Source: a virus
Lineage: Duplodnaviria > Caudoviricetes
Virus record (IMG/VR): IMGVR_UViG_3300037781_000018
Span: 1 to 40,822 of that record
DNA length: 40,822 nucleotides
Direction: 5' to 3' (one strand)
The translations under genes were made by a program, and so were the position numbers. Each line of letters opens with the position of its first letter. The stretch's first letter is position 1. Below the pieces are notes generated by a model. The model had not been told where the DNA came from. It saw only the letters and a list, made by a program, of their open reading frames with translations, and searched no databases. Of the stretch, positions 3,717-32,921 are shown in pieces.

Positions 3717-3718
3717 CC

Positions 3719-4444
3719 GTGGCTGACTTTGTTGCCTTTGCATCTGCCGACGACGCTCGCCTAGTGCTCGAAACCGCTCGACGCATTAAGGCTAGCGGTT
3801 TGCTTAATCGGATCGGCGGAAGCGTCGAGGATAGGCCGATAGAGCAGCCGGTCTACTGGGTCAATACAACAGGCGTAACAATTCCGCCCTATTCATGCTT
3901 AACAGCGGCAACGCTCGTTACAAATGACACCCGCGACTATTTCACTGTCAATCGACAAAACTTTATGGATGCGACCGGGGCATCTCCAATCATATTCAGC
4001 ACTGGCGAAGAAGTGCCGTCTGGCGGAATGAGCATCGCGCAGCCGGGGCCGGTCTACAAAGTCAACGCGGACCTCGGGCAGCCTCCGCTAGTCCATAACA
4101 CTGGATTTGCAACGTTCGCACCGGTGGTTAATTCGTACAAACTTTCGGCACGCGCTGGCGGCATGTTTGCGGTAGCACCGATCGAAAACCTAAGCGGACA
4201 AAATGCAAACCAAGATTACAACGCAAAAGCAATTCGGATTTCTCACGGACTGTTTATCTTCAAAAACCGCAACTTCGGAAATGGTGTCGCGGATATTCAT
4301 TGGCTTGATGCTACTCAGTTGCCTACTGGAAAATCCGCTGTCGTCACGGACGGATTAAGTATTTTCGGTCCGAACGTACTAGAGGGCTTTTGTATGCTAT
4401 CTGGCGGAACGTTTGTGATGATTCAAGCACCCTGCCCAGGTTAA
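3719..4444 (+). CDS. Putative tail tip protein
   Basis: 241 aa, tightly packed in tail operon. Confidence 0.45.
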   Translation: MADFVAFASADDARLVLETARRIKASGLLNRIGGSVEDRPIEQPVYWVNTTGVTIPPYSCLTAATLVTNDTRDYFTVNRQNFMDATGASPIIFSTGEEVPSGGMSIAQPGPVYKVNADLGQPPLVHNTGFATFAPVVNSYKLSARAGGMFAVAPIENLSGQNANQDYNAKAIRISHGLFIFKNRNFGNGVADIHWLDATQLPTGKSAVVTDGLSIFGPNVLEGFCMLSGGTFVMIQAPCPG

Positions 4445-5095: not shown

Positions 5096-6007
5096 TCAGC
5101 CGGTTTTGCGGCGGTCGGTGCCTTTTCTTCTGTCGCCCTGCGGATTGCCTAGGAACTCAGCGAGCGCGTCACAGGCTTGACGCTGACGAGTGTAACGCGG
5201 ATCGAGGTATCGTTGAGTCGTGCGGCGGTCCGAATGATCGAGCGTCTCTTGTGGATCCATGCCAGCGGCGTAAACCACCGAGCCAGTAGTTTTGCGAAGG
5301 CAGTGGGTTTGATATTTTCGCCCGGTCGGTAGTCCAGCAGCTTTTACGATCTTTTGGTAGCGGTTGAACAAGTAATTCTCGACATACGGCCAAGGCAAAA
5401 TGGCGGTTCCGTTGCCGCTGTACTTTCGTATCTGCTCGACTGTTTCGCAGGTTTCGTCCGACAGCCGATAGCGTCGATCTCTCGTTTTTCCTTTCCGAAC
5501 TTCGGCGGGCACAAGTAGCCAATCGCCTTGATACCACGTCCACTCCACCTTGCGGATTGCACCGATTCTCTCGCCTGTGTCGAGCATGAGGCGGATCAAT
5601 CCAGGCCACCACAAACCCGCCGGCACGCCAGAGAGCTCGCCTTTTGTTGTCGCTGCGGATTCCAGTAGTTGACGGATTTGCGGCTCCATCCACGCTATCG
5701 GAGCTCGTTCCGGTTCGTGTTCCTCGTCAATGTCGGGCCAGTCGGTCAGCAAGTTTTGCCTAACTGCTTGCCGCCACATGGCCAACAGTTGCGTGAGCTC
5801 TTTGTTTCGAGTTGCTGGCGCGACGTTACGACGCTTTGACAGGTGGAGCAAAACGTTTGTTTCAGTCAAATCGGCTACTTCGGCAGTCCTGCCGAGTGAT
5901 TCTGAAAAGCGTTTTACGCATAACCGGTACAGAATTGCCGATCTTTCGGACTTTCCGCGTAATCGTTTTGGAAAATAAATGTTTTCAAAGAAGTCTAGTA
6001 GTTTCAT
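5096..6007 (-). CDS. int: Tyrosine recombinase / phage integrase
   Basis: TGERIGAI (R), HCLRKT (HxxR), LDHSDRRTTQRY (H...Y); AGGAGG SD upstream. Confidence 0.92.
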   Translation of the reverse strand: MKLLDFFENIYFPKRLRGKSERSAILYRLCVKRFSESLGRTAEVADLTETNVLLHLSKRRNVAPATRNKELTQLLAMWRQAVRQNLLTDWPDIDEEHEPERAPIAWMEPQIRQLLESAATTKGELSGVPAGLWWPGLIRLMLDTGERIGAIRKVEWTWYQGDWLLVPAEVRKGKTRDRRYRLSDETCETVEQIRKYSGNGTAILPWPYVENYLFNRYQKIVKAAGLPTGRKYQTHCLRKTTGSVVYAAGMDPQETLDHSDRRTTQRYLDPRYTRQRQACDALAEFLGNPQGDRRKGTDRRKTG

Positions 6008-6181
6008 CTTTCTACCCTCCTATAGAGAGTAGTGCGCAAGTTAAGGAGAGGTAGGGAAAAAACGTAGAGTGTTGTAGGGGTCAATCGACTAGAGATCCAT
6101 TCTCTCGTCTAAGCGTTTCAGACTGGTATGGATTGCTTTCCAGCAACACCTGTGACAACCAGCCTGCAACGCTTTTTTCTA

Positions 6182-6604: not shown

Positions 6605-7192
6605 ATGCACAAGCAGTGGCACGTTTACGTGTTGCGTGACCCCAGGGACGGTTTTGTTCGTTACGTCGGAATGACGTGCAGTGCAAACGCTCGCAGTAAA
6701 TATCACAAAAGCTACGCTGACGGAACAGCAAGGCGGAAGCTTTGGACAGCAGAGCTCGCAATTTGTGGATGCCGTCCAGAATTCCAAGTCATCGCGACGT
6801 TTGACGGTAAAGACAAGGCAAAGCAAGCCGAGACACGGTTAATTGTTTTGCATCAAAACAACTACCCAGGAAGGCTGCTAAACGCGCAAGCGGTGTTCAC
6901 TCAAAAAGGGTTTTGGATTAACCGCGAGCCAAGCTGCACGCCATCGCCAGGCGACGGGCATTTCGCAGCATTTCTTTCCGGCTCGCGTCAGCTTGCTAGC
7001 CGCTACGTCGAGCGTGAGCAGTTAGTTGCAAAGCGACACCCAGAACTTGCTTTGCCTGTAATTCGTGCCTTGTACGACACCTGCCGCGATAAGTCGGCGA
7101 TGGCTAAGCGAAACCACGGCTTTCTTTACAACCATTCAATTCTTGAGATTGCCATTAAGCGTCTCGTCCGCAAACACATCTTCGCAGCATAA
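6605..7192 (+). CDS. GIY-YIG family nuclease
   Basis: HVYVLRDPRDGFVRYVGMT, downstream R, AETRLI (E) and LLN. Confidence 0.75.
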   Translation: MHKQWHVYVLRDPRDGFVRYVGMTCSANARSKYHKSYADGTARRKLWTAELAICGCRPEFQVIATFDGKDKAKQAETRLIVLHQNNYPGRLLNAQAVFTQKGFWINREPSCTPSPGDGHFAAFLSGSRQLASRYVEREQLVAKRHPELALPVIRALYDTCRDKSAMAKRNHGFLYNHSILEIAIKRLVRKHIFAA

Positions 7193-8454: not shown

Positions 8455-8724
8455 ATGTTAGTTTTGACACGACGAAGCGGCGAAAGCCTGACATTTACAA
8501 CGGCAACCGGCGAGACGTTCAAGGTCCTTATCGACCAGTGCCACCGCGGTAATTGTCGAGTTGCAATCGACGCACCAAAAAGTATCCGAATCCTACGGAG
8601 TGAGATTAATGACAAGGATCGCAAGGCAGGCTCACCTGGAACGCGACTACAGCCAAGTAAAGCCCGAACGGTTGCGTCTACTTGGTATCGTCCAGCCGGT
8701 GGGTGTGTGGACGCCGGAAAATGA
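8455..8724 (+). CDS. csrA: Carbon storage regulator CsrA/RsmA homologue
   Basis: MLVLTRRSGES...RVAIDAPKSIRILRSEI. Confidence 0.88.
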   Translation: MLVLTRRSGESLTFTTATGETFKVLIDQCHRGNCRVAIDAPKSIRILRSEINDKDRKAGSPGTRLQPSKARTVASTWYRPAGGCVDAGK

Positions 8725-18743: not shown

Positions 18744-19131
18744 GTTGGGCGTTGCCATGCTATTGGCTGTCGTGTTGGGCGTCCGCGTTGGCGGTTGCGA
18801 CTTGCCTGACTTTTCCAGCGTGTTGCCGATCCCGTCGCCAACGGTTGAGGGTGAGTTGTTTCTGATCGTGATCCACGAATCCGAGCAACCGGTTGACGGA
18901 TTGGCGAATCTGAAACGCAACTTGCCTTGGCTGGACGGGCTGAAAGACCGGGACGTGCGGTTCGTGGCTTATGACGACGACTTGCCCGAGGCGAGCGACT
19001 ACGCAGCGGAACTTGGCGGTCAAGGCGTTTTGATAGTTGATAAGGGCGGGCGTGTGGTGGCAAGCGCCAAGATGCCCGAGAAAATTACGAGCGTTTGGCT
19101 GGACGAATTACTCGCGAGCGTGGGACGATAA
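18730..19131 (+). CDS. Putative lipoprotein, possible thioredoxin-like fold without CxxC
   Basis: Signal peptide ending VGGC; VRFVAYDDD...GVLIVDKGGRVV. Confidence 0.55.
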   Translation: MAKAKLGVAMLLAVVLGVRVGGCDLPDFSSVLPIPSPTVEGELFLIVIHESEQPVDGLANLKRNLPWLDGLKDRDVRFVAYDDDLPEASDYAAELGGQGVLIVDKGGRVVASAKMPEKITSVWLDELLASVGR

Positions 19132-20015
19132 TGAGCAAGCCAGGCGACTATATCGAAACAAAAGCGGGCGAGTGTGACGAAGTAATCGGGCCGGAAGGTA
19201 ACCGGATCAAGCTCGGCTTGCTTCCGCCGACCCCAGCTAGCGGGCCGCAGGTTTTTGCCAGTCTCTCATCTGCCATTCCGCTATTAAGCAAGGACGAAGC
19301 GAAGGCGATAATCACAAGTCAATTTCGCAAGCCTGCAAGACAGATTTGGGGGCCTGCGTATATTAAAAATCAAGGAGTTCGCGGGGCTTGCCAGGGCTAC
19401 GCTTCGGCGGCGGCTGTCGAGCGAACAAGAGACTTAAATGGGCAAGACTTTATTTCATTGTCTGGCGATTTTGCTTACAGCCTAGTCAACGGCGGGCGGG
19501 ATAGGGGATCACAACTTAGCGACGGTTTCCGCGCGGCAAAGGAAATCGGTTATTGCCCCGAGGACACACCGGGGCTAGTTCGCTGGGAATACCGCAAGAG
19601 TCGGATGCCGCAAGCAGCGTTTGAGGCAGCCAAGAACTACAAAGGTTTCGAGGGCTTCGTCGCACAGACAGAGCAGGAATTAGTTAGCGGGATGGCTCAC
19701 GGCGGAATCGCTGTCGTCGCAACCCACGTTACCAACAGCTTTTCACGACTTGACAGATACGGTGTCAGCGGCGGTCGCGGTGGACCCGGCAATCATGCGG
19801 AGTGTTGCGACGATATCGTCTGGGACGACGAGCTAGGCGAATTCAAGTACGACTTAGCCAACTCGTGGAACACAACTTGGGGCGACAGCGGTCGCCACTA
19901 TTGCACGTTTGAGCGTCACTTTTCGACAACGATTCGCGTCCATAAGTTTTATGTTTTTTTCGAGGCGAGCGTTGACCCTCAAGGCAACAACCCGCCACCA
20001 CTAAGGATTGTTTAG
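19131..20015 (+). CDS. Papain-like (C1) cysteine peptidase
   Basis: NQGVRGACQGYA (Q, C), GNHA (H), ANSWNTTWGDSG (N). Confidence 0.88.
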   Translation: MSKPGDYIETKAGECDEVIGPEGNRIKLGLLPPTPASGPQVFASLSSAIPLLSKDEAKAIITSQFRKPARQIWGPAYIKNQGVRGACQGYASAAAVERTRDLNGQDFISLSGDFAYSLVNGGRDRGSQLSDGFRAAKEIGYCPEDTPGLVRWEYRKSRMPQAAFEAAKNYKGFEGFVAQTEQELVSGMAHGGIAVVATHVTNSFSRLDRYGVSGGRGGPGNHAECCDDIVWDDELGEFKYDLANSWNTTWGDSGRHYCTFERHFSTTIRVHKFYVFFEASVDPQGNNPPPLRIV

Positions 20016-20921: not shown

Positions 20922-23589
20922 ACGAGTGACAAGCCGAGTAACGACACCGACGGCGCGGCGAGTAACGGGCGATGGTGTGTCGGGTGGTAGTGGTTTGCTT
21001 CCCGGCTTTACCAAGCTGGGGGTAGCACTTGCTAATCCTTCTTGGCTCGCTACGGCTGGCAACAGGGGGCCTTATTTTCCAAGGCTGTTTGAAAATGACT
21101 TGCACCGCTCTGTTTTAAGTAGCTTGCCGACTGATAGGTTTTCAATTCTTTACAGTTCCGACCATGGCACGACTACGGGCTATATTGGCAGGGCGGACAC
21201 AGACAGCATCGAAACAATACCCTGGACAGATAGTGGGGCTGCGGTGCTAACGGGTGCTGACCAGCTAGAAACTCCGTTTCCAATTTATGATGCGGCACAA
21301 GAAAAAGTTTTGGTTTATTTTCACGACCAATCAAATCCCTATAAGTTTGGTTTTCAAAATACCCAACTTTACACAACTGAAGACTTAGATAGTTTTTCGT
21401 ATCAAAACGAAATTGGTAGCAACGTTAAGCACTCTGGTTATGCTCAGGTGATTGGTAGCGGCAACTTTTGGGTTATGCGGTCAATAGGCGATGACGGCTC
21501 CGTTTTTGCTGACGCTCTTTGGTACGGCACCAGTCCCGACCGCTTGAATGCCTGGCCACTATTGCTGCCGCCAGGTCAAGCAACTATTCTGCCGCCAACA
21601 AAGCAAACATCTGGCACGCCCTTTGTATTCCAATACGGTGGGAAGCTGTGGAGGCTTACTACCAGGACAGTCAGACCGCAGTCATCAACCACTCACGAGG
21701 CGTTTATTGCCTATCAGGTTGCCTCAGATGGATACACACCGCTTAGCGGCTATCAAGACCTGATCTTGCCAGGCGGCACAGATGACGCTGATAGATATTT
21801 AATTGAGACAGCGGCTGCGTATGTTGTGGATGGAACACTTTACATACTTTATATCGGGCAAAACACTGCTGGCGAAAACTCTATCATGCTCGCCAAAGGC
21901 AACGCAGATGAGCCTACGCAAACATCATTCTTGCTTCCGGTTAATTCAAGTGGCAAAATTGCCCGCAGTGCTGCCAGGACTTTAGAGGTTGATTGGGTAG
22001 GGTCGGACGGCATTATTCCAGATGCAACTGCGACTGTTGTAAGCGGAACAAATAATTCCACAGCTTTTTTGCATGGCTATGAATTGCGGACCGGTTCGGG
22101 CTCAGCACAGGATATTGCGTGGGACTTCCCGGCAGTTCAGCCGACAACAGATGGAGATTTAGAGTTTTCTTTGAATGGAATTTCAGCTTCGACGCTCAGC
22201 CATGAAAATGGCTATGGTTTTGAAATCGGCTTGCTTGACGATCTGGCAAGCCCGACAGATGGGTTTTTTTTAGATTGGTCAGTTGGGACGAACGGCACTC
22301 TTCACACTTTTGCAGATGGGGTTGAAGACACCGAAAACCTTCGGTCAATTGATTTTTGGGTCAATACGGCGTTTCGCGATTTACACGCAAACATTTCTTT
22401 CAGGGTCAGTGAGAATGGGGAGCGAGTCACGTTATTTCTAAATGACTCGCCAGCATATTCTGCCGACATATCTTCATCGGTTACATGGGGCAGTAACGTA
22501 AAGCCATATATTCGCATCAAGACAGGGAGCACTCACGCAGATGAGTTTTTCCTACGTTTTGAGCGGTTAATGATTCAGCGACAGGGCTCCGGAACAGATG
22601 CAATTATTGAAGACATTCGTGCGTTTGAAAATTTCCCTGCATCGTTTAGTTGCGTTGCTTCCGGTGGATCGTCGTATCAATGGCAAAAAAGGGACAGAGC
22701 GACCAAAGGCAGTTGGCTAAATGTAAGTGGTGCCACATCAAGCGTGCTTTCATTCGCGAACGTTTCGCGATACGACGCTGAGTATGAATATAGGTGTGTC
22801 GTCGATGGAAGTGTTAGCAGCAATCGTGCTTTTATGTTTGTTTCGCCTGAGTCAGATATTATCAACTGGATGGATTTAAGTCGAGCATACAATATGCAAG
22901 GTGCGACTGGAAACGCTCGCATCCCAACTACCGCTGTCGTTCGGTGTGATTGCCAGGTTCGTAGCAGTCCATTCTATCGACAATTAACAGTAGCAAATCA
23001 ACCAACTATCGGTAGCACTACCTACAATGGCCGCAAGTCTGTTGTTTTTGATGGTAACGATACCGTCGAAAACGCCACTACGTTAGTAATTGGGGATACA
23101 ACCGAAACTTGGTTTTGCGTGTTTAAGCGTGCCGCCGGTGCATCTAGGGGTGACGTTTATCAAAGCGGGAGTAGCACACAAAAAATCCTATACACCGCAG
23201 ACGATAGCACTTTACAAATATACGCGGGCACAATCTTGGCTGGCACAGCGGACGTTACAGAGCTTGGGGTGGCGACCGCAGTATTTAATGGATCAAGCTC
23301 GATTGTGCGGTGGAATGGTACAGAAATAGCGACTGGAAACGCGGGAACAAGAAGTTCTTCGGCTGGCCAGTATCTTGGCGGTCGAAGTTCGGAAAGTCCT
23401 CTAGATGGCGAAATATGCGAAGTCATTAGGTTCCGAGGCGTATTGCCAATTGAAAAAATACAAGCCGAAGAAGCAGCACTGATGGCAAAATGGGGAATTG
23501 GTTCGGCTGTCTCGACGGACAGTTTACTTTTGGAAGACGGCGACGGATTATTACTTGAAACTGGCGACAAGCTGTTACTTGAGGCTTAA
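20911..23589 (+). CDS. Large multidomain fibre/receptor-binding protein
   Basis: 892 aa; glycosidase-like beta-propeller N-terminal half, Ig-like FSC...YQWQK...YRCVV, LamG-like C-terminus, [12 protein letters not shown] tail. Confidence 0.6.
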
Positions 23590-23591
23590 CA

Positions 23592-24236
23592 ATGGCAGAT
23601 CAAAAAACCACAGCACTAACTGCGTTAACTTCGCTAGTTGATGCTGATTTATTCTATGTGATCGATGACGTTGCTGGGACGGCAACGTCGAAGAAGATTA
23701 CGGCGGCAAACGTGCTGGCGTATGTTTCCGCCAATGTTTCGGTTAATGATGCCAACTGGTCGGGTACAGATTTGGCAATAGCCAACGGCGGCACCGGTGC
23801 AAGTGATGCCAGCGGAGCACGAACAAATCTCGGTCTTGTGATCGGTACTGACGTGCAAGCGTATGATGCTGACACAGCAAAGACCGATGTTGCCCAGGAA
23901 TATTCGGCGGCTCAGAATTTCGACGCGGCTATCCTGACTGATGCAGCTTCGATCACCTGGGATCTCAACACTCAGCAGGTTGGTATTGTCACACTTGGCG
24001 GCAACCGAACACTTGCTAATCCGAGTAACCAAAAGGCTGGCGGGACGTATATTGTAATCGTCAAGCAAGACGCTACCGGGAGCCGCACATTAGCTTATGG
24101 CGACAACTACAAGTGGCCAGGAGGGACAGCACCAACTCTTACGACTGACGCCAATGCAGTGGATATTTTGACGTTTGTTAGCGATGGCACAAACATGCAC
24201 GGCGTTTCATCACTCGATTTCTCGGTGCCTGCATAA
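23592..24236 (+). CDS. Fibre protein
   Basis: [10 protein letters not shown]; [22 protein letters not shown]; [11 protein letters not shown]...[10 protein letters not shown]. Confidence 0.72.
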
Positions 24237-25159
24237 TGTTTACTTTTCCTATTGGGTTTCATTCGTTTTCGCCTGTCGGTGGTGGCTCTTTATTGCTTGA
24301 TACTTACAGCGGAGGGCAACTTGCATTTTCGCTTCGGAAAGTACGCAACGCATACTCTGGTAATTGCGTGCGGGTAAGGCGGTCGTCGGATAATGCAGAG
24401 CAAGATGTTGGTTTTGTAGATAGAGTTATTGATACCGCGTCAATGCTGACTTTCTGTGGGGCTGGAGATGGGTTTGTTGTTACTTGGTACGAACAGTCTG
24501 GTAATGGACTCAACGCAACTCAGGCAAGCAATTCGTTACAGCCGCAAATTGTCACTAGCGGTGCCGTTAATACCTTTGGAGGCAAGCCTTCGGTTGATTT
24601 TAATGGCTCGACGAGTGTGCTGTGGGGCACTGACGGCGGTGTGCTTAATGGGTTGAGGACCGGGCAGCTCTCTTATTTTGCGGCGGCCAGGTCGTTTGCA
24701 TTGCCGAAATATGCTTGCATCTTCACTCCGTCTGTCTCAAGCTCAGACGGACAGGGTTCTATTGCATTACAAAAATTTGGGGTTAGTGGGTCTATCTTCG
24801 GCCCACACAATACCTGGATCGCTGGGACTAACGTTGCATCAGTAGATTTAACTGGCGTCCGTGCTGAGCATTACATATTTTCCACATTTCGAGACTCTGC
24901 TGGCACAGCAGGAAACGGCGCTCAGCAATTGGTAGCAGTCCGCAATGGCGCGAGAAATCTCAGTAGCACTGGCACGCAAACCTGGACAAGCAATAATGGG
25001 ACAAAATTTGCGATCGGAAACCAAAGCGACGTAGATTCAGGAACGCCTGTTAACTGGGATGGCCCGATTCAGGAATTATTAGTCTTTAGCGTTGATCACC
25101 GTGCAAATCGTGCGGCTATCGAGGCTGACATGGCGGCAGCTCACGGGATTGCTCTTTAA
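24236..25159 (+). CDS. Lectin/LamG-like fibre-tip protein
   Basis: AFSLRKVRNAYSGNCVRVRRSSDNAEQDVGF...WYEQSGNG; coupled to fibre gene. Confidence 0.68.
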   Translation: MFTFPIGFHSFSPVGGGSLLLDTYSGGQLAFSLRKVRNAYSGNCVRVRRSSDNAEQDVGFVDRVIDTASMLTFCGAGDGFVVTWYEQSGNGLNATQASNSLQPQIVTSGAVNTFGGKPSVDFNGSTSVLWGTDGGVLNGLRTGQLSYFAAARSFALPKYACIFTPSVSSSDGQGSIALQKFGVSGSIFGPHNTWIAGTNVASVDLTGVRAEHYIFSTFRDSAGTAGNGAQQLVAVRNGARNLSSTGTQTWTSNNGTKFAIGNQSDVDSGTPVNWDGPIQELLVFSVDHRANRAAIEADMAAAHGIAL

Positions 25160-25270
25160 CACGCAACGATCCATCGCGTGTTACGTGAGCTGAGAAGCTG
25201 AGTCGAGTGCACGCGGCTCGGTGGAGCTCCCAGGCCCGGTACGTTAAGCCGGGCCGCCAAAACACCCGAC

Positions 25271-25303
25271 AGCCCCGACGCCCACCCGCGCCGGGGCTTT
25301 TTT
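25271..25303 (+). terminator. Rho-independent terminator
   Basis: AGCCCCG/CGGGGCT stem followed by T-tract. Confidence 0.7.
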
Positions 25304-25345
25304 GTGGGGTGGGGAAAGCCGCATAATTCTTTTCTGATTTTAGGC

Positions 25346-25373
25346 TTGACTGTTTTCTAGCCGATGTTAAAAT
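25346..25373 (+). promoter_or_regulatory. Near-consensus sigma70 promoter at the head of the accessory region
   Basis: TTGACT-16bp-TAAAAT with TGn extension and AT-rich upstream tract. Confidence 0.72.
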
Positions 25374-25417
25374 TCAGACATACAAGAGACGATATCACCT
25401 CACACGGGAAAACGAAA

Positions 25418-25576
25418 ATGACCGCCATTGAGCTGAAAAACGAAATCGCTGAGATCAAGGAAGAAATCGCAAACGTCAAGGAAATCGAGACAGGCGACTA
25501 CTTCCCAGCTTGGGAAAAAGAGCGAGACCTTGAAAGGCTTTACGCTCGACTCGGAAAGCTGATCGCGGAGCTTTGA
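25418..25576 (+). CDS. Small coiled-coil protein
   Basis: First ATG with GGGA SD after the promoter. Confidence 0.6.
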   Translation: MTAIELKNEIAEIKEEIANVKEIETGDYFPAWEKERDLERLYARLGKLIAEL

Positions 25577-25577
25577 G

Positions 25578-25769
25578 GTGAGAGGCGGCAAACGAGAGGG
25601 AGCAGGCAGGCCGCCCGCTCCCGAGGGCGAAAAAAAAGTGCCGTATGCGACTAAGCTCGATCCGCAGGTGGTCGAGTATTTGAGGGCGTGCGGCAACGGG
25701 GCACGGGCGATTGAGCAGGCTATTCAGCGTAGCAAGGCCTTTCGGGAGTGGATGGCTAACAGACGATAG
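25578..25769 (+). CDS. Small DNA-binding protein (RHH/BrnA-like)
   Basis: RGGKREGAGRP followed by TKLDPQVVEYLR. Confidence 0.65.
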   Translation: MRGGKREGAGRPPAPEGEKKVPYATKLDPQVVEYLRACGNGARAIEQAIQRSKAFREWMANRR

Positions 25770-25796
25770 GATTTTGACACTTACACGGGGAATGAG

Positions 25797-26078
25797 ATGA
25801 GCAGCAGATTCTACGCGGTCGCGGATGCTAACGGGCCAATCTCGGTAGCGATCAACACCCGAACGGCGGAGCAGGCTTGCAAGTGGTTTGCGAAGCATGA
25901 CGCGGCTGAATTCGTTGACCAAGGCCGCACCGACGCGGAAGATGATTTTGGCGCGGAGTGTGAGGGGATGAGCAAAGGGTTGTTTTTCCACGTGATGCGA
26001 AGCAACGGCTATGAAGTTGTCGAACTTGACATGGCTGGCGATTACAACTGGATGCTGTGGGCACGTGCGGAAGATTGA
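25797..26078 (+). CDS. Hypothetical protein (module cargo)
   Basis: Flanked by 28-bp sites at 25757 and 26084. Confidence 0.65.
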   Translation: MSSRFYAVADANGPISVAINTRTAEQACKWFAKHDAAEFVDQGRTDAEDDFGAECEGMSKGLFFHVMRSNGYEVVELDMAGDYNWMLWARAED

Positions 26079-26120
26079 CCAACTAACGGCCAATAACGAA
26101 TCCTTTGTAAAGGAGCGATA

Positions 26121-26396
26121 GTGAGTACCGAAAAAATACTGGTTGAGCGGTTGCGCGATTACGACCAGTGCCATGACGGCGATATAGACGAAGCGGCGGA
26201 TATGCTGGAGTTTTTCTTTGGACAGATGCAGATGCACTCACCGAAGATGGACGGCCAGCACAGCTACAGCTTTCGCGGCGGGTGGCCGATGCAACACTGC
26301 ATCGGGAACAGTCCAGAAGCTGCGGTAAGGGCTGCGATTGCGGAGATTCGCAAGGCTTCCGGTGAAGCGGCTTTGGGTATTAACAGCGAACAATAA
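26121..26396 (+). CDS. Hypothetical protein (module cargo)
   Basis: AAGGAG SD; flanked by sites at 26084 and 26381. Confidence 0.7.
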   Translation: MSTEKILVERLRDYDQCHDGDIDEAADMLEFFFGQMQMHSPKMDGQHSYSFRGGWPMQHCIGNSPEAAVRAAIAEIRKASGEAALGINSEQ

Positions 26397-26513
26397 ATCG
26401 GGTGTAACAGACGACGATTGAGGCAGCGTCACCGGGGACGCGAATTCAATAAGCCCGCGTTGGCCACTGACGCTACAGTGGAAGTCAAAGACGGTCAAAC
26501 CGGATTGGCGAGT

Positions 26514-26613
26514 GGATCGGCGGCGTGGACGGTGACGCGCGGAAAGCCTTGCTGGTTTGTTGCTACAAGACCTAGGTGACCAGCTAGAGCAGGTTCGACT
26601 CCTGCCCGATCCA
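26514..26613 (+). ncRNA. tRNA-like RNA 1 (no canonical anticodon arm)
   Basis: GGATCGG/CCGATCC acceptor, GCGT/ACGC D-like stem, GCAGG-TTCGACT-CCTGC T-arm; 100 nt. Confidence 0.65.
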
Positions 26614-26728
26614 TTATTTTTGCCTCAAAAAGTAGGTAGTTTTTCAGGCAGGCTTGTGGGAAAAAGTAGCCATTTTTACCCACAGGTAACGGCTAAGAAC
26701 AGATTCTTTGTAAAAGGCGACGATCAAA

Positions 26729-26956
26729 ATGGATGAGGCAAAGGAAAGAGCGGCGGCGTTTCTTGCTGACATGGTGGAGCTTTGTCGAAAGCACAGGGCA
26801 ATGGTCTACCTTGACGGAGAAGGCGAAGATGCTGACGTGGAGTTCGTCGAGCAGCCGATAGGCACCAGCGGCTATATGTTTTCGGTTGGGATTGCAGAGA
26901 TTGAGGAAGCAGTTCGACGAGAGCTTTGGAAAGAACTTTACGACGGCGAGTTGTAG
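26729..26956 (+). CDS. Hypothetical acidic protein (module cargo)
   Basis: Flanked by sites at 26687 and 26954. Confidence 0.65.
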   Translation: MDEAKERAAAFLADMVELCRKHRAMVYLDGEGEDADVEFVEQPIGTSGYMFSVGIAEIEEAVRRELWKELYDGEL

Positions 26957-26992
26957 CGGCCAAGTCTCGATTGACACTTAACGGGGTGATTT

Positions 26993-27307
26993 ATGTTGGC
27001 GGAAGATGCGATTCAAGCAATCAAAGCACTTGACGAAGCGGGGGCGTGTTCGTTTATCACTTGTGAGTCCGGGCACGGTACACGACCCCAAGTCACTGTG
27101 AAATTCAAGCACATTCAAGACGCGCAAAGCTTCCACCGTGCACTAATCCGGTGCGGTGAAGTCGCGAGGTTGATCGTGGCGGACACGCAAGAGAAACTTG
27201 AGCAGCAAAGCGTTCGAGATATGGCAGCGGCGGCTGGTATGGATATTAGCGACATCCGGGGCGAAGATATTGACAGCTTGACCGGCAAGCGGTCGTTTAA
27301 CGAGTAA
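26993..27307 (+). CDS. Hypothetical protein (module cargo)
   Basis: GGGGTG SD; flanked by sites at 26954 and 27298. Confidence 0.65.
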   Translation: MLAEDAIQAIKALDEAGACSFITCESGHGTRPQVTVKFKHIQDAQSFHRALIRCGEVARLIVADTQEKLEQQSVRDMAAAAGMDISDIRGEDIDSLTGKRSFNE

Positions 27308-27361
27308 GGCTGGATCGTGCGAGACGGGCAGCTGTCAAGTATTCCTTGACAGCTCAGTAAC

Positions 27362-27470
27362 GGACTAGAGGCACGGCAGTGCACTGCGCGACAACAATGG
27401 TTGGGCGTCGTCGAGGTGGCAACTCGCGACGGGAAGCAGGCCAAACCAGGTTCGACTCCTGGCTAGTCCA
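27362..27470 (+). ncRNA. tRNA-like RNA 2 (expanded anticodon domain)
   Basis: GGACTAG/CTAGTCC acceptor, GCAC/GTGC D-like stem, CCAGG-TTCGACT-CCTGG T-arm; 109 nt. Confidence 0.65.
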
Positions 27471-27504
27471 TTAACGGGTAAGTTTTGATCGGGTGTAAAA
27501 GACG

Positions 27505-27765
27505 ATGCGAGTAGTCCAGGCTAGTTTGTGCTTACGTTTTTATCGTTCGGCGGGTTGGACTCGCGAGGCTGTCCGTGAATTGTTGAGCGACGACAAGCGG
27601 CTTGCTCGCGTGTTTCCGAGATACTTCGACGATCGGGACCAAGCCGGGAACGGTAGCTTTGAGTTAGACGACGGGCTGCCTCACGACGATTGCGACTACT
27701 TTGCTGTCTACGGGGCGTGCAATCCGTTTTCGGCTGAGGCGTTGGCACAGCACGACATTGCGTAA
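27505..27765 (+). CDS. Hypothetical protein (module cargo)
   Basis: Fills the interval between sites 27472 and 27763; its stop is the TAA of the site. Confidence 0.55.
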   Translation: MRVVQASLCLRFYRSAGWTREAVRELLSDDKRLARVFPRYFDDRDQAGNGSFELDDGLPHDDCDYFAVYGACNPFSAEALAQHDIA

Positions 27766-27875
27766 CGGACAATAGATCATTGCGTTTTAATGATCGGCGG
27801 AAAGTTAAAATAACGGGCCGGTAATTTTAATCCGGCGTAACGGTCAAGGTTTCATTGGGTGTAAAGGAAAAGATC

Positions 27876-28061
27876 GTGAACTACATACGCAAGACATACG
27901 GTGTGCAGGCTTACCGTGGCGGAAGAGTGCTTTACACCGGTGGATCGGTGGCACGGTGGGGCACGATTAAATCGGCTCGTGGTCCGTATCTTAGGATTTT
28001 ACTGGACGGCGATAAACACGCAGGTAGCTATCATCCCACTTGGGAACTGAAATATCTGTAA
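27876..28061 (+). CDS. Small phage protein (SH3-like)
   Basis: YIRKTYGV..RGGRV...YLRILLDG...YHPTWELKYL; stop is the TAA of site 28059. Confidence 0.7.
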   Translation: MNYIRKTYGVQAYRGGRVLYTGGSVARWGTIKSARGPYLRILLDGDKHAGSYHPTWELKYL

Positions 28062-28080
28062 CACGCAAGGCGGTATCGGC

Positions 28081-28169
28081 ACCTAACGTTTGTGATAACC
28101 ACGCGGCGAGATTGATTTTACCATTGCGAAACCACGTTGCCGCCGCTGTGGTTCATCGCATTGTTCATC
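28081..28169 (-). mobile_element. attC site of cassette C
   Basis: Plus strand ACCTAAC-6-GATAACC-ACGCGGCG...CGCCGC(T)GT-GGTT(C)ATC-5-GTTCATC; two extrahelical bases. Confidence 0.85.
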
Positions 28170-28188
28170 GGCGGTTTTGGTCTATGAG

Positions 28189-28476
28189 ATGAAGCGAGCA
28201 GTAACCGAACCATACCCTTGCGATCAAGTTCAAGAAACGCACAGGGGCGACAACATAACCGTCTTTCGTGGTCAATCAGAGTTGATCGTCTACGGCGAGG
28301 GGTCGGACTGGATGATCCAGTATTCCAGAATCACGAATCATTGTGACGGCTGGCGGCGATGGTATGCACACCGTGACGATGCGGAAGCGAAGGCCCGCGA
28401 GGTGGCCAGAAAACCGTACGGAGGGCGTGGCGGTGTCGATGATGAATGCACAAAGGTGCCACAGAAGTTTGCCTAG
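28189..28476 (+). CDS. Cassette C hypothetical protein
   Basis: Inside cassette 28087-28618, inverted relative to attC. Confidence 0.6.
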   Translation: MKRAVTEPYPCDQVQETHRGDNITVFRGQSELIVYGEGSDWMIQYSRITNHCDGWRRWYAHRDDAEAKAREVARKPYGGRGGVDDECTKVPQKFA

Positions 28477-28612
28477 CGACACATGCAGCGGAGCCTAGAG
28501 GGACAAACACAGATCGGCGTGGTCGTGGATGCGATCAACCAAGGACGCGGTGAGATGTGCCTGGGAGTGGGCTTAGAGTTAACGGGATAGCAAAGACGCT
28601 GCATTTTCGTCC

Positions 28613-28700
28613 GATGAACGCTTTGATTAAACCGGCGGCGAGAGTATCGCTGCCATTGGAACCGACGCTGCCGCCGCTCGGTTTCAATCAATTGTTATGC
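28613..28700 (-). mobile_element. attC site of cassette B
   Basis: GATGAAC-6-ATTAAAC-CGGCGGCG...CGCCGC(T)CG-GTTT(C)AAT-5-GTTATGC. Confidence 0.85.
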
Positions 28701-28714
28701 GGCTAGGATAGCGA

Positions 28715-28957
28715 ATGATGTTTCAGAACATGGTGAAAGCACCAAAGGCGTTTGAGGATGCACTGGTTGCGTCGGCAGCATTGGACGCATTGCCGCCGGA
28801 GATGATTCAATACGGTGTTAAGCTCGCAACGAAAGCAGGCGAGAAGGTTGATTCTCTAAGGTGGCGTCTATGGGAAGATGCGGCACGCTTTGCCGAGGGT
28901 GAAGTGGCTGAGGGCAGGGCGACTGGTTTTTGGGTGTTCAAAGAGGCTGCGGTTTAG
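28715..28957 (+). CDS. Cassette B hypothetical protein
   Basis: Fills cassette 28619-28966; stop lies 1 nt before the terminal CCGCATAAC. Confidence 0.65.
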   Translation: MMFQNMVKAPKAFEDALVASAALDALPPEMIQYGVKLATKAGEKVDSLRWRLWEDAARFAEGEVAEGRATGFWVFKEAAV

Positions 28958-28960
28958 TCC

Positions 28961-29056
28961 GCATAACGTCGGTCATCAACGGGCCGGAAAGAAAGAAAGA
29001 ATTAACCATGAAAAATAAAGCTGCAAGTCCGGCTCCGTTGCATGACGTTGTTCTAC
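28961..29056 (-). mobile_element. attC site of cassette A
   Basis: GCATAAC-6-CATCAAC-GGGCCGGA...TCCGGC(T)CC-GTTG(C)ATG-5-GTTCTAC. Confidence 0.85.
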
Positions 29057-29376
29057 GTCCGCACTGGCCGGAAGGGCTAGAGCAAGGCCGGTTTTACCAA
29101 TTCAATTGTGACGATGACGGCAGAGACGGCGATGCGTTTTTCCGTGTGTTGGTTGCGAACGATGGCGACGTTCATTTGTGTGCGTCAAAGTTGATCGAGC
29201 CAGGATTTACGGACAAGGTATCCGGCGAGCGGAAACCATCGTTGTACGACAATTTCCCTTCGGTTCGGTGTCGAACCGGAATCGGCGGCGGAATGCATAG
29301 CAGAACGCGGCAGGCGTTGTTGTGGCTTGCGATGGCGATCAAGTTAGACAACGAAGAACTAGGGATCGTGGATTAG
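29008..29376 (+). CDS. Cassette A hypothetical protein
   Basis: ATG in the attC loop; stop lies 2 nt before the terminal ACGTAGAAC; cassette 28967-29386. Confidence 0.65.
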   Translation: MKNKAASPAPLHDVVLRPHWPEGLEQGRFYQFNCDDDGRDGDAFFRVLVANDGDVHLCASKLIEPGFTDKVSGERKPSLYDNFPSVRCRTGIGGGMHSRTRQALLWLAMAIKLDNEELGIVD

Positions 29377-29378
29377 GT

Positions 29379-29400
29379 ACGTAGAACTATTGATTAACGC
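29379..29400 (-). mobile_element. attI-like simple site
   Basis: Minus strand GCGTTAATCAATAGTTCTAC: TAA-6nt-GTT spacing as in attI1 (CCCTAAAACAAAGTT); no attC hairpin. Confidence 0.55.
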
Positions 29401-29462
29401 CAACTAAGTAGGGGCGTATTCGTGAAATGGCCCTACTCAGTAACGGCCAATGCGGGATCGAC

Positions 29463-29553
29463 GCCTAACGCTAATGTTTACCGAGCCCCCGCCGGTAGAC
29501 TCTCCACTTCAAACAACCGTTGCCGGGGGCGTCGGTACAACATTTTGTTATCG
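29463..29553 (-). mobile_element. attC site of cassette D
   Basis: GCCTAAC-6-GTTTACC-GAGCCCCCG...CGGGGGC(G)TC-GGTA(C)AAC-5-GTTATCG. Confidence 0.85.
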
Positions 29554-29561
29554 GGTGCGAT

Positions 29562-29990
29562 ATGTGGCAAGAAGAAGTATTGGTAGACAAGACAATCATC
29601 GATGTGAAGGTCAAGAGCCCATCTGTGTGGTTGCAAGTTAAGGAAGGTGGTTGGGTTGAAATTAACGTAGAGGGCGATTGTTGCTCAGAGGCGTTTGTGG
29701 ACGCTGTGCGATTGCATGGCACACCCAAGCTGACGGGCAAGAGCGAGGAAATCAGTTTTCCGTCGCAACCAACGTCGCAGGAAGTGGACGAAATTACGGC
29801 GGTGCGATTCTTGGGCGATCGAGGTAGCGTTTCGATCCTTCACCGCAATTCGTCAAACGGATATTACGGCAACTACTTGTCGGTCAACTCACGAGGCGAG
29901 CCACCAGTGGACGCAGTATACGGAAAAGAGTGGTTTCGGGACGTGCAAACAACCCGACTCAGTAACACGCAACGCGGAATCAACGTCTAG
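29562..29990 (+). CDS. Cassette D protein, DCC...SNGYY phage family
   Basis: EGDCCSE and HRNSSNGYYG motifs; alternative TTG start at 29520 inside attC. Confidence 0.7.
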   Translation: MWQEEVLVDKTIIDVKVKSPSVWLQVKEGGWVEINVEGDCCSEAFVDAVRLHGTPKLTGKSEEISFPSQPTSQEVDEITAVRFLGDRGSVSILHRNSSNGYYGNYLSVNSRGEPPVDAVYGKEWFRDVQTTRLSNTQRGINV

Positions 29991-30000
29991 CCGCTCGATT

Positions 30001-30028
30001 TTGCGATTGGCCAGAGGGACGCTAGAAT
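30001..30028 (+). promoter_or_regulatory. Putative promoter after the accessory region
   Basis: TTGCGA-16bp-TAGAAT. Confidence 0.45.
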
Positions 30029-30099
30029 AGCTTGCAAACAAATTGCAGCAACGCAAGAATGATGCAAGGTGGTTTCCCAACTGGCAAAAAGGATTGACG

Positions 30100-30381
30100 A
30101 TGACGGTCTTACTTAACGCGGTGACGACGGACACGGCAAGCAGCGGGCAGTCTTTAAGCGGACCCGCGACGGTTTACACAAGCGGCACATTCGACGGCGC
30201 TTCCGTCGAGATTCAGGTTGCACCCAGCGACACCGCAGCCAAGTACGTTCCTGCGGGCCGCGATGCTGTGCTACTTCAGCCTGGCGTTATTTCTATTGAT
30301 GTACTCGGCGCGTACTATCTCAAGGCCGTGTCGAAAGGCTCGGGAGCCAGCACGGCGATCACGGCAGAGGTCGTCCAGTAG
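30100..30381 (+). CDS. Small beta-sandwich protein, possibly virion-associated
   Basis: AAGGA SD; SGTFDGASVEIQVAP. Confidence 0.6.
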   Translation: MTVLLNAVTTDTASSGQSLSGPATVYTSGTFDGASVEIQVAPSDTAAKYVPAGRDAVLLQPGVISIDVLGAYYLKAVSKGSGASTAITAEVVQ

Positions 30382-30544
30382 CGGGCCGGTGGAACCGGGA
30401 AAATCTGGACCGACACCCCCCCCTACCCTTTAGGTTCCTTTGGGGGCATTTGAGGTTGTGTGGTCACCCAGATTCCCGTTTTTTCTACACATAGTCCGGC
30501 GAAAAGTCTGGTCGTTTTGGGCTGGGGGTTTGGGGGCATAGTGC

Positions 30545-30883
30545 GTGCCGATTCGCGACACTCGAATGATGGCAAAGGCTTTGATTCAACGTTGGCCAAT
30601 TAGTGTAGACGCAAAGGCTCAAATCATTGAGCGACTGGTTGACATCGTGTCTGACCCTAGCAGCAGTCCGCGCGAGGTGACGGCGGCGGCCAAAGGCTTA
30701 TTGAGTGCGGAGAAACAAAACCAGGACGACGAGCATAAGGTGGTAGATGTACGGATTCAGAGCCGACACGCTGAACTGGATGCGATTGCTGCCGACCTCG
30801 GAGTTGACCTTGGTGTTGTCGAGGATGCCAGTAGAAAAGCGGAAGGCGGCACTGTTGGCCCTGAAAGAATTGGCGGTTCGTGA
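30545..30883 (+). CDS. Putative terminase small subunit
   Basis: Helical 112 aa immediately upstream of and overlapping the large subunit. Confidence 0.55.
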   Translation: MPIRDTRMMAKALIQRWPISVDAKAQIIERLVDIVSDPSSSPREVTAAAKGLLSAEKQNQDDEHKVVDVRIQSRHAELDAIAADLGVDLGVVEDASRKAEGGTVGPERIGGS

Positions 30884-32921
30884 TGCGGAAGAAACCGACG
30901 AGTCAAAGGACGCAGCGCGGAAGCGGGAGAAACGATCGGAAGCGGCACGGGTCACAATTGGCACTTGTCAAAATCCAGCACGCAGGGAGGCGTGCTTGGC
31001 TGACCCTGAGCGGTTTTTGCGAACCTACATCGACTACCGATTTACTCGGGCGTTTTACCCACATCAGGTGCGAATGATCGAAGGCATCTACGACCGAGCA
31101 CGGTACGGCGGCAGTAAGAGCTACGCGGCACCTCGGGGCGACGGCAAGACGGAGGTTTGCACCGCGATGATTGTATTTGTCATGCTGGCCGGGTTGGTCG
31201 ATTACGTCGTTGCAATCGCGGCAACAACGAAGCTGGCGAGCGACATTTTCAAAGATGTTAAATATCACTTTGAAACGTCGCCGCTGCTGTCGGCTGACTT
31301 TCCCGAAGTGTGCGATCCGATCAAGGCATTAGAGGGTGCACCGCAGCGGGCGGGCAAGCAGCACGTTGATGGCGTGCTGACGCGGATTGAGTGGAAGCAA
31401 GATCGATTGATTTTGCCGGAGGTTAGCGGTTCGCCGTTCGGTGGTGCGTGCATGAATTACTACGGATTCGACGCGGCGATTCGGGGCGTGCGGATTCGTG
31501 GCAAGCGGCCAAGGCTGGCACTGGTCGATGACCCAGAGACGCGGGAAAGTGCCAAGTCTGATCAGCAAATTAAAGACCGAGGCGACATGCTCGACCGCGA
31601 CGTGGCGGGCTTGGGCGGGCAGGAGGGCAACGTGTCGATTGTGGCGATTACGACTTGCCAAAACAGGCGGTCGCTGTCGTGGAAGTTGACTGGGGAGGAT
31701 AAGGCGGGCAACAAGATCAAGCCAGCATACGAGGGCGAACGGTTTGCGGCTATCAAAGCCTGGCCGACGAACGCGGAACTTTGGGACGATTACGTCGCCC
31801 AGCGGAAAATCGATCAGAACAACGGCGACCCATACGGACAGACGGCGACAGCACTTTACCTAGCGAACCGAGAGGCGATGGACGCGGGTGCGGAGGTCAT
31901 CAACCCTGGCCGGTACGATCGCAACATTACGCCGGAAGGAGAGTCGATTGAGGTGAGTAACCTTCAGCATTGCTACAACTTCATCGCGGATCGCGGGCTT
32001 CCGTCATTCCTTGCCGAGTACCAAAACGAACCGGAGCCGGAGGAGGAACTGCAAACGGTCGGGCTGACTAGCGGTAAGGTGATGAGCCGAACTAACACGC
32101 TCGAGCGGCGGGAACTGCCGGAGGATTGCGAGTTGGTTTGTCTGGGAATCGACATTGGCAAGTACGCTTCCCACTGGTCGCAACTGGCGTTTGCTGGTAA
32201 CGCGGTCGGCTACGTCACGGACTACGGAGTGATCGAGACATACGGGCTGGACGTATCGTCGAGCGAACAGGCGATTGAGCGGGCGATTTTGGCATCGTTG
32301 CGAAACTTTGCTGACGAGTTAATGACAGAGGTGAAACCGCTGATCGTGCTTGTAGACTCGGGTGATTACTCCGATGCAGTCTATGAATTTTGCAGGTCAA
32401 CGGGTCCGCCCTTTTTCCCGTGTAAGGGTATGCCGGGATCAAACTTTAGGATGCCGGAGCAGTCAAAGACGAAGCAGCCGTTCCTTGAAGCCTGGGCGCA
32501 CTGGATCGAACGCGAGCAGTCGTGGTTGTATAACGTCAATTCCTGGTACTGGAAAAACTGGGTGCACGAGCGTTTTATGACGGACGCGCTAACCGATGGA
32601 GTCGCGAACGATGGGTCGTTGTCGCTGTTTGCTCCGCGTAATCACAAAGAGCACCTGTCGTTTGCAAAGCACATCGTCGCGGAGGAATTGCAATCGAAGT
32701 TTGAACCAGGCAAAGGCGTCAAAACCCATTGGGCACAGGTCAGTAAAAACAACCACTGGCTTGATGCCACATCGTATGCGTGCTGCGCGGCGGCATGTGC
32801 TGGGATGCGTTTAATACCGCAGACCCAGCGAACAGTTAGTCAGCAGGTTAAAGACAATCGAAAGCAAACCCAGACGGGCACGGGCTTACATGGTCGGTCG
32901 TTCGTTGCAACTCAACGGTAA
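30747..32921 (+). CDS. Terminase large subunit (GpA-like nuclease domain)
   Basis: APRGDGKT Walker A, LALVDDPE Walker B, LGIDIG, VDSG, NHWLDA; true start may be ~30825. Confidence 0.88.
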   Translation: MYGFRADTLNWMRLLPTSELTLVLSRMPVEKRKAALLALKELAVRDAEETDESKDAARKREKRSEAARVTIGTCQNPARREACLADPERFLRTYIDYRFTRAFYPHQVRMIEGIYDRARYGGSKSYAAPRGDGKTEVCTAMIVFVMLAGLVDYVVAIAATTKLASDIFKDVKYHFETSPLLSADFPEVCDPIKALEGAPQRAGKQHVDGVLTRIEWKQDRLILPEVSGSPFGGACMNYYGFDAAIRGVRIRGKRPRLALVDDPETRESAKSDQQIKDRGDMLDRDVAGLGGQEGNVSIVAITTCQNRRSLSWKLTGEDKAGNKIKPAYEGERFAAIKAWPTNAELWDDYVAQRKIDQNNGDPYGQTATALYLANREAMDAGAEVINPGRYDRNITPEGESIEVSNLQHCYNFIADRGLPSFLAEYQNEPEPEEELQTVGLTSGKVMSRTNTLERRELPEDCELVCLGIDIGKYASHWSQLAFAGNAVGYVTDYGVIETYGLDVSSSEQAIERAILASLRNFADELMTEVKPLIVLVDSGDYSDAVYEFCRSTGPPFFPCKGMPGSNFRMPEQSKTKQPFLEAWAHWIEREQSWLYNVNSWYWKNWVHERFMTDALTDGVANDGSLSLFAPRNHKEHLSFAKHIVAEELQSKFEPGKGVKTHWAQVSKNNHWLDATSYACCAAACAGMRLIPQTQRTVSQQVKDNRKQTQTGTGLHGRSFVATQR

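Follow-up and report, generated by a model that had tools for sequence, protein, structure and literature searches.

In the pdif systems of Acinetobacter Rep_3 plasmids, as far as the available text of two studies goes (PMC13141974, PMC9947245), published rearrangements join sites whose spacers are identical or agree at 5/6 bases; single modules are also replaced where site pairs match. Here we describe an array of 13 related 28-bp sites in a temperate phage (IMG/VR record IMGVR_UViG_3300037781_000018), whose DNA was analyzed at its full length (the window); the virus record is complete, with 40,822 bases and direct repeats at its termini. We read the sites, with a probability of about 0.55, as pdif-like double-stranded recombination sites for a tyrosine recombinase of the Xer/integron family, with six-base centres that would serve as addresses for module exchange. 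No description of such an array in a phage was found in the open-access literature (subscription journals were outside the scope of the search).

The 28-bp site

All 13 copies listed in the initial annotation were confirmed at their positions, and they are confined to 25157-29990. A degenerate pattern with at most one mismatch gave 14 matches against 0.36 expected, and none of 100 shuffles reached 14; the matches comprise 11 listed sites, 26954, the reverse reading of 27763 and a weak extra match at 29349, whereas 25757 is excluded. With a profile built from the 13 sites, the top ranks in the genome went to these sites, and the only other match among them was the reverse reading of 27763. Leave-one-out scores ranged from 9.3 to 25.7 bits, with the lowest for 25757, 27298 and 29963.

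The consensus reads TAACRSNCRA, N6, A, TYG, four variable bases, and then mostly (G/C/T)TA. Conservation is mirror-symmetric, with positions 1-4 and 8-10 mirrored at 25-27 and 18-20 around a centre of low information. The proposed layout of two arms around a centre stands, and its six-nucleotide (nt) centre is refined to a 10-7-10 dyad, in which position 17 is A in 12 of 13 copies and belongs to the centre side. The dyad and the 28-bp two-arm layout support the initial comparison with tyrosine-recombinase core sites and pdif modules. Site 1 (25157) is a 9/10 palindrome, as had been noted. Direct orientation had been given for all copies and holds for 12 of 13; only 25757 is reversed, at its inner bases.

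Pairing of each site's own arms (5.23) was no better than pairing with the arms of other sites (5.60; p=0.94), and therefore the 28-bp site is neither a hairpin nor a substrate that folds as attC does. No fold was obtained for sites 8 and 11, and the attC finder reports only the four true attC described below.

A candidate fourteenth copy, reversed, lies at 20963-20990 near the start of an 892-amino-acid (aa) tail gene, inside its reading frame; its score was reached in 9 of 100 null sequences, and it was left out of the count. This candidate and site 1 would bracket the tail-fibre block.

All 13 centres are different, with a maximum identity of 4/6 among 78 pairs. Adjacent centres share 2.5/6 bases versus 1.59 over all pairs (p=0.0035); adjacent arms are not more alike (left p=0.35, right p=0.21). 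Genes 25578 and 26121 stop inside a centre and the DUF7448 gene reads through one, and those centres are therefore constrained. The six-base centres are not freely varying, as they had been described, given the likeness of neighbours and the three genes that end inside or beyond a centre.

Organization of the array

The sites and their modules are listed below; sites without a remark were placed by the profile, and open reading frames (ORFs) without a remark are from the ORF list.

25157-25184, + strand: site 1, centre CGATCC, a near-perfect dyad; contains the stop codon of the last tail gene (24236-25159)
25271-25304, + strand: GC-rich hairpin and T-run, likely terminator of the tail operon (fold z=-3.7; absent from the terminator-scan list)
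25346-25373, + strand: sigma-70-like promoter, 10/12, extended TG; the sole + strand match within the array
25418-25576, + strand: small ORF of 52 aa, module 1; a longer start at 25364 is possible
25578-25769, + strand: ORF of 63 aa; weak BrnA-antitoxin-like match (E=0.012, below cut-off); ends within site 2
25757-25784, + strand: site 2, centre TAGGAT, inner asymmetry reversed; after the same gene, viral locus L260 has an attC and L261 an attI-like element
25797-26078, + strand: ORF of 93 aa, module 2
26084-26111, + strand: site 3, centre TAACGA
26121-26396, + strand: ORF of 91 aa, module 3; family of 73 proteins; ends within the centre of site 4
26381-26408, + strand: site 4, centre CAATAA
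26514-26613, + strand: tRNA-like RNA (acceptor stem, T-arm), module 4; Rfam tRNA-Sec 23.9 bits, below the gathering threshold of 47, and fold
26687-26714, + strand: site 5, centre GAACAG
26729-26956, + strand: ORF of 75 aa, module 5
26954-26981, + strand: site 6, centre GTCTCG
26993-27307, + strand: ORF of 104 aa, module 6
27298-27325, + strand: site 7, centre GGCTGG, right arm degenerate
27362-27470, + strand: second tRNA-like RNA, module 7; a lake relative has 3 differences in 143 nt
27472-27499, + strand: site 8, centre GTTTTG
27505-27765, + strand: ORF of 86 aa, module 8
27763-27790, + strand: site 9, centre TAGATC; the 75-bp interval to site 10 has no + strand ORF of 30 aa of its own
27838-27865, + strand: site 10, centre GGTTTC
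27876-28061, + strand: ORF of 61 aa, module 10, phrog_2730 (PHROG)
28059-28086, + strand: site 11, centre GGCGGT; right end overlaps the crossover core of attC1
29441-29468, + strand: site 12, centre TGCGGG; overlaps at its right end with the attC5 core
29562-29990, + strand: DUF7448 gene, translated through the whole of site 13
29963-29990, + strand: site 13, centre CGCGGA, end of the array

All 13 sites stand at the borders of genes or RNA modules. Of the 12 intervals, six hold one small gene each, two a tRNA-like RNA and two integron cassettes; one contains a terminator, a promoter and two genes, and one has no gene. Eight copies contain the upstream gene's stop codon (25157, 25757, 26381, 26954, 27298, 27763, 28059 and 29963), in agreement with the initial count. 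Several copies are followed by a gene start 5-15 nt downstream, and a purine-rich leader starts at the last bases of the site. The promoter at 25346-25373 likely drives the accessory operon.

The right arms form families that reach into the ribosome-binding region (sites 3/5, 4/8/10, 2/6 and 11/12/13). Between 29431-29468 and 29953-29990, stretches that take in sites 12 and 13 and the 10 bases before each, 29 of 38 bases are identical; the two sites look like a duplication around the DUF7448 module.

The two tRNA-like RNAs (26514-26613 and 27362-27470) have a 7-bp acceptor stem and a GGTTCGA T-arm and no normal cloverleaf; neither was called by ARAGORN, and both are conserved in lake relatives. 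Small hairpins were seen at 27330-27352 (module 7) and 27818-27836 (module 9), the latter AT-rich and filling the ORF-less 75-bp module.

Proposed module exchange

The pdif-like reading rests on the dyad, the positions at module borders, the distinct but related centres of neighbours, the separate attP of the phage integrase, and the lack of a hairpin. By the general mechanism of tyrosine recombinases, one recombinase monomer would bind each arm, and the strands would be cut where the centre meets the arms. Sites with matching centres would let related phages swap small gene modules, acquire them or lose them; as exchange would require such a match, the 13 direct copies, at most 4/6 alike, would not delete one another. 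Direct copies would be stable within a genome and exchangeable with a relative because of the spacer-matching rule of pdif. A new slot may arise when a module enters a site and the address is duplicated and then drifts, as possibly at sites 12 and 13. Separately, a host integron integrase would have loaded attC cassettes into two of the modules.

Relatives and rearrangement joints

Phage DNA is present in pond metagenomes, of which runs X2, X4 and X5 were compared, and 80-99% relatives occur in one lake metagenome (run X7, from an independent study). In X7, three of the four joints within 25500-30060 have both ends on sites (three of nine within 23500-31500), and the expectation that breakpoints in relatives would fall on the sites is weakly supported by this single study. 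Joint 25769>26084 consists of a 30-letter side and then a loose end that aligns with the leader after site 3; it fits the left arm of site 2 followed by the centre, right arm and leader of site 3, and the simplest reading is that module 2 would be absent. Joint 26709>26953 has a 21-letter side, and gene 26729 is barely covered in X7. Joint 29467>29996 brings the terminal flank directly up to the centre and right arm of site 12; attC5 and the DUF7448 gene are missing from it. Further, in one lake contig the likeness sets in at position 9 of site 6 and continues rightward after 173 unlike letters, and the match of another contig stops at the last base of site 8 and is followed by 25 unlike letters. 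Contig breaks at sites in the low-depth runs X4 and X5 were not counted, coverage gaps being possible there. Among 13 relatives of gene 25578, the site-encoded ending ANRR is kept only by the closest (84%).

No match to the array was found in 50,697 annotated phages, and it is absent from 8 viral loci with relatives of gene 26121 and from the 72 loci with relatives of gene 25578 that were listed from 17 of 64 parts of the collection (680 kb). Single-site patterns matched 1 and 62 loci among viral contigs, of which one was a fragment identical to the phage and the rest were isolated hits; double-site patterns matched 13 viral and at least 120 metagenome loci (54 of 64 parts covered), and those listed were tandem repeats or chance pairs. 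No viral locus was found for the 61-aa module protein. Only a narrow group of phages seems to carry the site system. Up to three weak profile hits were obtained in AT-rich loci of large phages; among these, L024 (944-2528), L008, L014, L031 and L034, from AT-rich phages of about 200 kb, have two to three weak direct matches within 5 kb, which may be chance.

Phage and host

Head and tail genes of siphophage type were recognised in the window, together with genes for replication, a tyrosine integrase and an excisionase-like product (PHROG, Pfam and NCBIfam scans). Genes for a GIY-YIG nuclease, a CsrA-like regulator and a papain-family peptidase were also seen (6605-7192, 8455-8724 and 19095-20015). 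The integrase and its attachment site are as follows.

5096-6007, - strand: phage tyrosine integrase (Int), 303 aa; 28.6 bits versus an integron-integrase cut-off of 265
6065-6091, no strand assigned: TAG-N4-TTG-N7-CAA-N4-CTA, the likely attP of the Int above; at its core it agrees with the prophage junction in a Stieleria relative

The named relatives of the integrase are planctomycete (Aureliella, 49%); further relatives occur in Stieleria (60%) and in Pirellulaceae/Planctomycetaceae genomes, with one Kordiimonas bin among the seven loci. The host is likely a planctomycete because the integrase relatives are planctomycete. Terminase relatives were limited to an identical fragment and one 34% relative.

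The attP core resembles a tRNA 3' end, lies immediately upstream of int and is flanked by TAG-N4-TTG and CAA-N4-CTA. Two copies of the Stieleria element (60% Int), 44 kb apart (L199 and L200), turn identical at the tRNA-like core.

Candidate recombinases

The phage integrase is not an integron integrase. It had been proposed as the driver of the sites, with a host recombinase as the other option, and this proposal is not upheld: the phage Int is probably not their enzyme because it has a separate, tRNA-type attP, which shares the 10-7-10 size of the array sites but has reversed inner triplets (TTG versus CAA/CGA), and because none of seven viral records with Int relatives holds the 28-bp site (mostly fragments; one at least 90% complete). 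The Stieleria genome has no copy of the site.

The recombinase would most likely be host-supplied. If the pdif-like reading is right, host XerC/D or another host Xer-like protein has roughly an even chance of being the enzyme; an integron integrase acting in double-strand mode is a clearly weaker candidate, a helper element is weaker again, and the phage Int comes last.

In the available text of PMC3025954, a planctomycete dif is not determined. The host-group chromosomes that we scanned gave no enriched or shared match to the profile. In genome G298, at about 3.42 Mb of C1, a clear GC-skew terminus was seen without a recognisable dif; in G007 the skew is too noisy for placement of the terminus. 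A canonical dif-like pattern had fewer matches than the control in five genomes. An 11-6-11 palindrome at G298 3427127 was considered as a dif and rejected, as it is absent from the four other genomes (1/5 only). Host matches in G009 (C73) and G007 (793764) lie within long reading frames and were taken as chance, as was G298:636887, which is coding-like though no ORF is listed there. In 102,638 bases around 30 intI loci, no profile score exceeded 14.

Integron elements nested in the array

Integron elements occupy the interval between sites 11 and 12 and the start of the following one.

28081-28169, - strand: attC1, host-type integron attC (attC finder)
28177-28476, + strand: cassette gene 1 of 99 aa, in antisense to the top strand of attC
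28613-28700, - strand: attC2 (attC finder)
28715-28957, + strand: cassette gene 2, 80 aa (ORF list)
28961-29056, - strand: attC3 (attC finder)
29008-29376, + strand: cassette gene 3; its start lies in the attC3 loop, and translation runs on through the arm
29381-29440, - strand: attI-like element at the close of the three-cassette array, with relatives in L253, L254/L255 and L261 (3 copies)
29463-29553, - strand: attC5, the fourth intact attC (attC finder)

The four true attC are built like attC beside Pirellulaceae intI genes, and an IntI above the cut-off was found in 24 of 61 Pirellulaceae genomes. The ends of the three cassettes are complementary over 8-9 bases. The phage cassette genes are antisense to attC, unlike the cassette ORFs of the host in most of 15 traced intI loci (30 were fetched).

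The attI-like element consists of AAC, about 6 nt, an AT-rich box and a CCAACT-N-AGTTGG palindrome, and stands at gene ends in several phages (L261:130-170, 3685-3725 and 6965-7005; L254:6237-6272; L253:6240-6280). A reading of 29381-29440 as a truncated attC was dropped, as related attI-like elements exist in other phages.

In L254/L255 the gene 26121 family takes the form of an inverted attC cassette, and the N-termini of many of its database members read like a translated attC arm. This suggests traffic between the 28-bp-site and attC systems, because one gene family is found both between 28-bp sites and as an inverted attC cassette.

In the pond runs, a 4,047-base contig (depth 380 in X2 and 84 in X5) shares 19-base arms with attC2 (28621-28639) and attC3 (28967-28985); it is possibly a small abundant element with attC sites.

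Weighing the explanations

A number of results count against a pdif-like role of the sites. In Pirellulales genomes a site match was found in 4 of 301, versus 5 control matches; five complete genomes gave 28 matches versus 24 for the control, with none common to different genomes, and in the 430 kb around the skew terminus of G298 the best score was 17.8, coding-like, with no good copy. No second array was present in any sequence fetched. The 4/6 maximum among centres is also expected by chance, and the signal from neighbouring centres drops to p=0.06 without the three attC-flanking sites 11-13. Each joint is a single contig with a short side of 30, 21 or 20 letters at 80% likeness; repeats often generate such joints, and the 28-bp sites are mutually similar. 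Joint 25769>26084 would also fit gene 25797 preceded by another leader, since the two genes begin alike (ATGAGC and GTGAGT). No joint was found in pond runs X2, X4 and X5; only two of six listed contig ends with at least 20 unlike letters are on sites (p=0.07), and one lake contig retains both neighbours across site 7. Finally, the outer TAAC coincides with the integron crossover position at four places.

This last point belongs to the main rival, which we consider unlikely: the sites would be attI-derived or secondary targets of IntI, with crossover at the outer TAA^C, and the modules would be cassettes without attC, mobilised by the enzyme that also moves the neighbouring attC cassettes. Sites 11 and 12 end on the right in the crossover cores of attC1 and attC5, and site 13 has its left TAAC close to where the DUF7448 cassette would be expected to end. 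The start of site 2 corresponds to an attC in L260 and to an attI-like element in L261, in each case after the same gene. A crossover at the right end is an exact fit for joint 29467>29996. A suitable enzyme would be at hand in the Pirellulaceae genomes with an IntI (24 of 61), and IntI1 can recombine two double-stranded attI sites, according to the available text of PMC4792948. The structure of the site speaks against this explanation. Host attI have AAC, 4-6 nt and an AT-rich box in 13 of 15 traced loci, whereas the site has its variable centre there; the inner register AA-N6-ATY has the C of AAC in only 3 of 13 sites. The surroundings of the 30 intI loci lack any profile score above 14, and the ends of the DUF7448 cassette are complementary over only 4 bases, versus 8-9 in the three true cassettes.

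Somewhat less probable still, the accessory operon could be silenced by a dimeric phage regulator, possibly a repressor derived from a recombinase as MrpR is, and the sites would be its operators or roadblocks. Binding by a dimer would suit a dyad whose centre is free, the sites are peculiar to this phage group, and a repressor of tyrosine-recombinase fold on a repeated intergenic element is known (PMC10516654, available part). Such operators would be expected at promoters; however, no copy is on the strong promoter 25346-25373 or in the int/excisionase control region, and copies also border the RNA modules and the ORF-less 75-bp interval. Related centres of neighbours are not predicted, and PHROG, Pfam and NCBIfam scans of the larger ORFs gave no repressor or second recombinase-fold gene.

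We regard it as improbable that the sites are parts of short repeated leader units (site plus ribosome-binding region) that act as homology linkers for ordinary recombination, in the manner of PeSL. The right-arm families that extend into the ribosome-binding region and the 10 further upstream bases shared by sites 12 and 13 (29/38) would agree with such units, and shuffling via PeSL has been published (PMC2839356, available text). Set against this, the repeats are short and only 60-80% alike, their conservation is patchy and mirror-symmetric rather than uniform, the unit has no promoter or stem-loop, and no annealase was recognised among the scanned ORFs.

A role of every copy as a promoter for an alternative (ECF-type) sigma factor is very improbable; the initial annotation had named a promoter as the competing explanation. 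Genes do begin 5-15 nt after several copies, but the -10-like hexamer of site 13 is present in 1 of 13 copies, the best-conserved bases sit where the promoter spacer would be, the purine-rich leader begins at the last bases of the site, and the sigma-70 promoter scan gave no match at any 28-bp site. Site 13 has AAC, 17 nt and CGTCTA, which we take to resemble ECF promoters.

If the pdif-like reading is true, the array offers a concrete cause of phage mosaicism, with fixed, addressed crossover points as opposed to chance recombination at gene borders. Module exchange of the pdif type would reach beyond Acinetobacter plasmids to a phage of a phylum without an identified dif, and a defined 28-bp substrate would be available for the specificity of a planctomycete Xer or integron integrase. 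More tentatively, and with considerably less confidence, the locus may be a two-tier cassette system served by two host recombination systems, in which addressed direct-repeat slots for a tyrosine recombinase of undescribed specificity are combined with nested mini-integrons of attI and inverted attC; this would perhaps reveal the planctomycete Xer site.

Comparison with known systems

The array resembles the SPBRE elements of Bacillus phage SPbeta and their regulator MrpR (PMC10516654) in being a repeated, phage-specific intergenic motif, possibly bound by a protein of tyrosine-recombinase fold. As far as the available text describes them, SPBRE are 15 bp long, in promoter regions and prophage-wide, whereas the phage copies are 28 bp, lie within 4.8 kb and are off promoters; no MrpR-like gene was found in PHROG, Pfam and NCBIfam scans of the larger ORFs. 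With the T4-type PeSL cassettes, in the part of PMC2839356 available, the array has in common short repeats, a hypervariable phage region and the gain and loss of modules; PeSL are units of promoter and stem-loop, whereas the 28-bp sites have neither and show dyad symmetry of recombinase type.

The likeness to integrons lies in the row of single promoterless genes behind one promoter, in stop codons inside the site, and in true attC cassettes and an attI-like site within the same array, overlapping two copies. Unlike an integron attC, the 28-bp site forms no hairpin and lacks both extrahelical bases and an invariant inner AAC. Unlike an integron attI, it has no AAC followed 4-6 nt later by an L box, which the element at 29381-29440 has, and no intI is adjacent; the phage Int (28.6 bits versus 265) is 19 kb away.

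The sites are like those of the Acinetobacter Rep_3 plasmid pdif system (XerC/XerD), as given in the available text of PMC13141974 and PMC9947245, in their 28 bp, unequal arms and variable 6-bp centre, in the many copies that border small accessory modules, and in spacers that differ within one molecule. They are unlike pdif in being phage-borne, with no matching chromosomal dif found in the host-group genomes searched; 12 of 13 copies are direct, whereas pdif sites alternate, and the arms differ from the published XerC/XerD arms, with only the inner AA and T in agreement (table in PMC13141974). The array acts pdif-like on the reading preferred here, yet by arm sequence and orientation it is not a member of the pdif sites.

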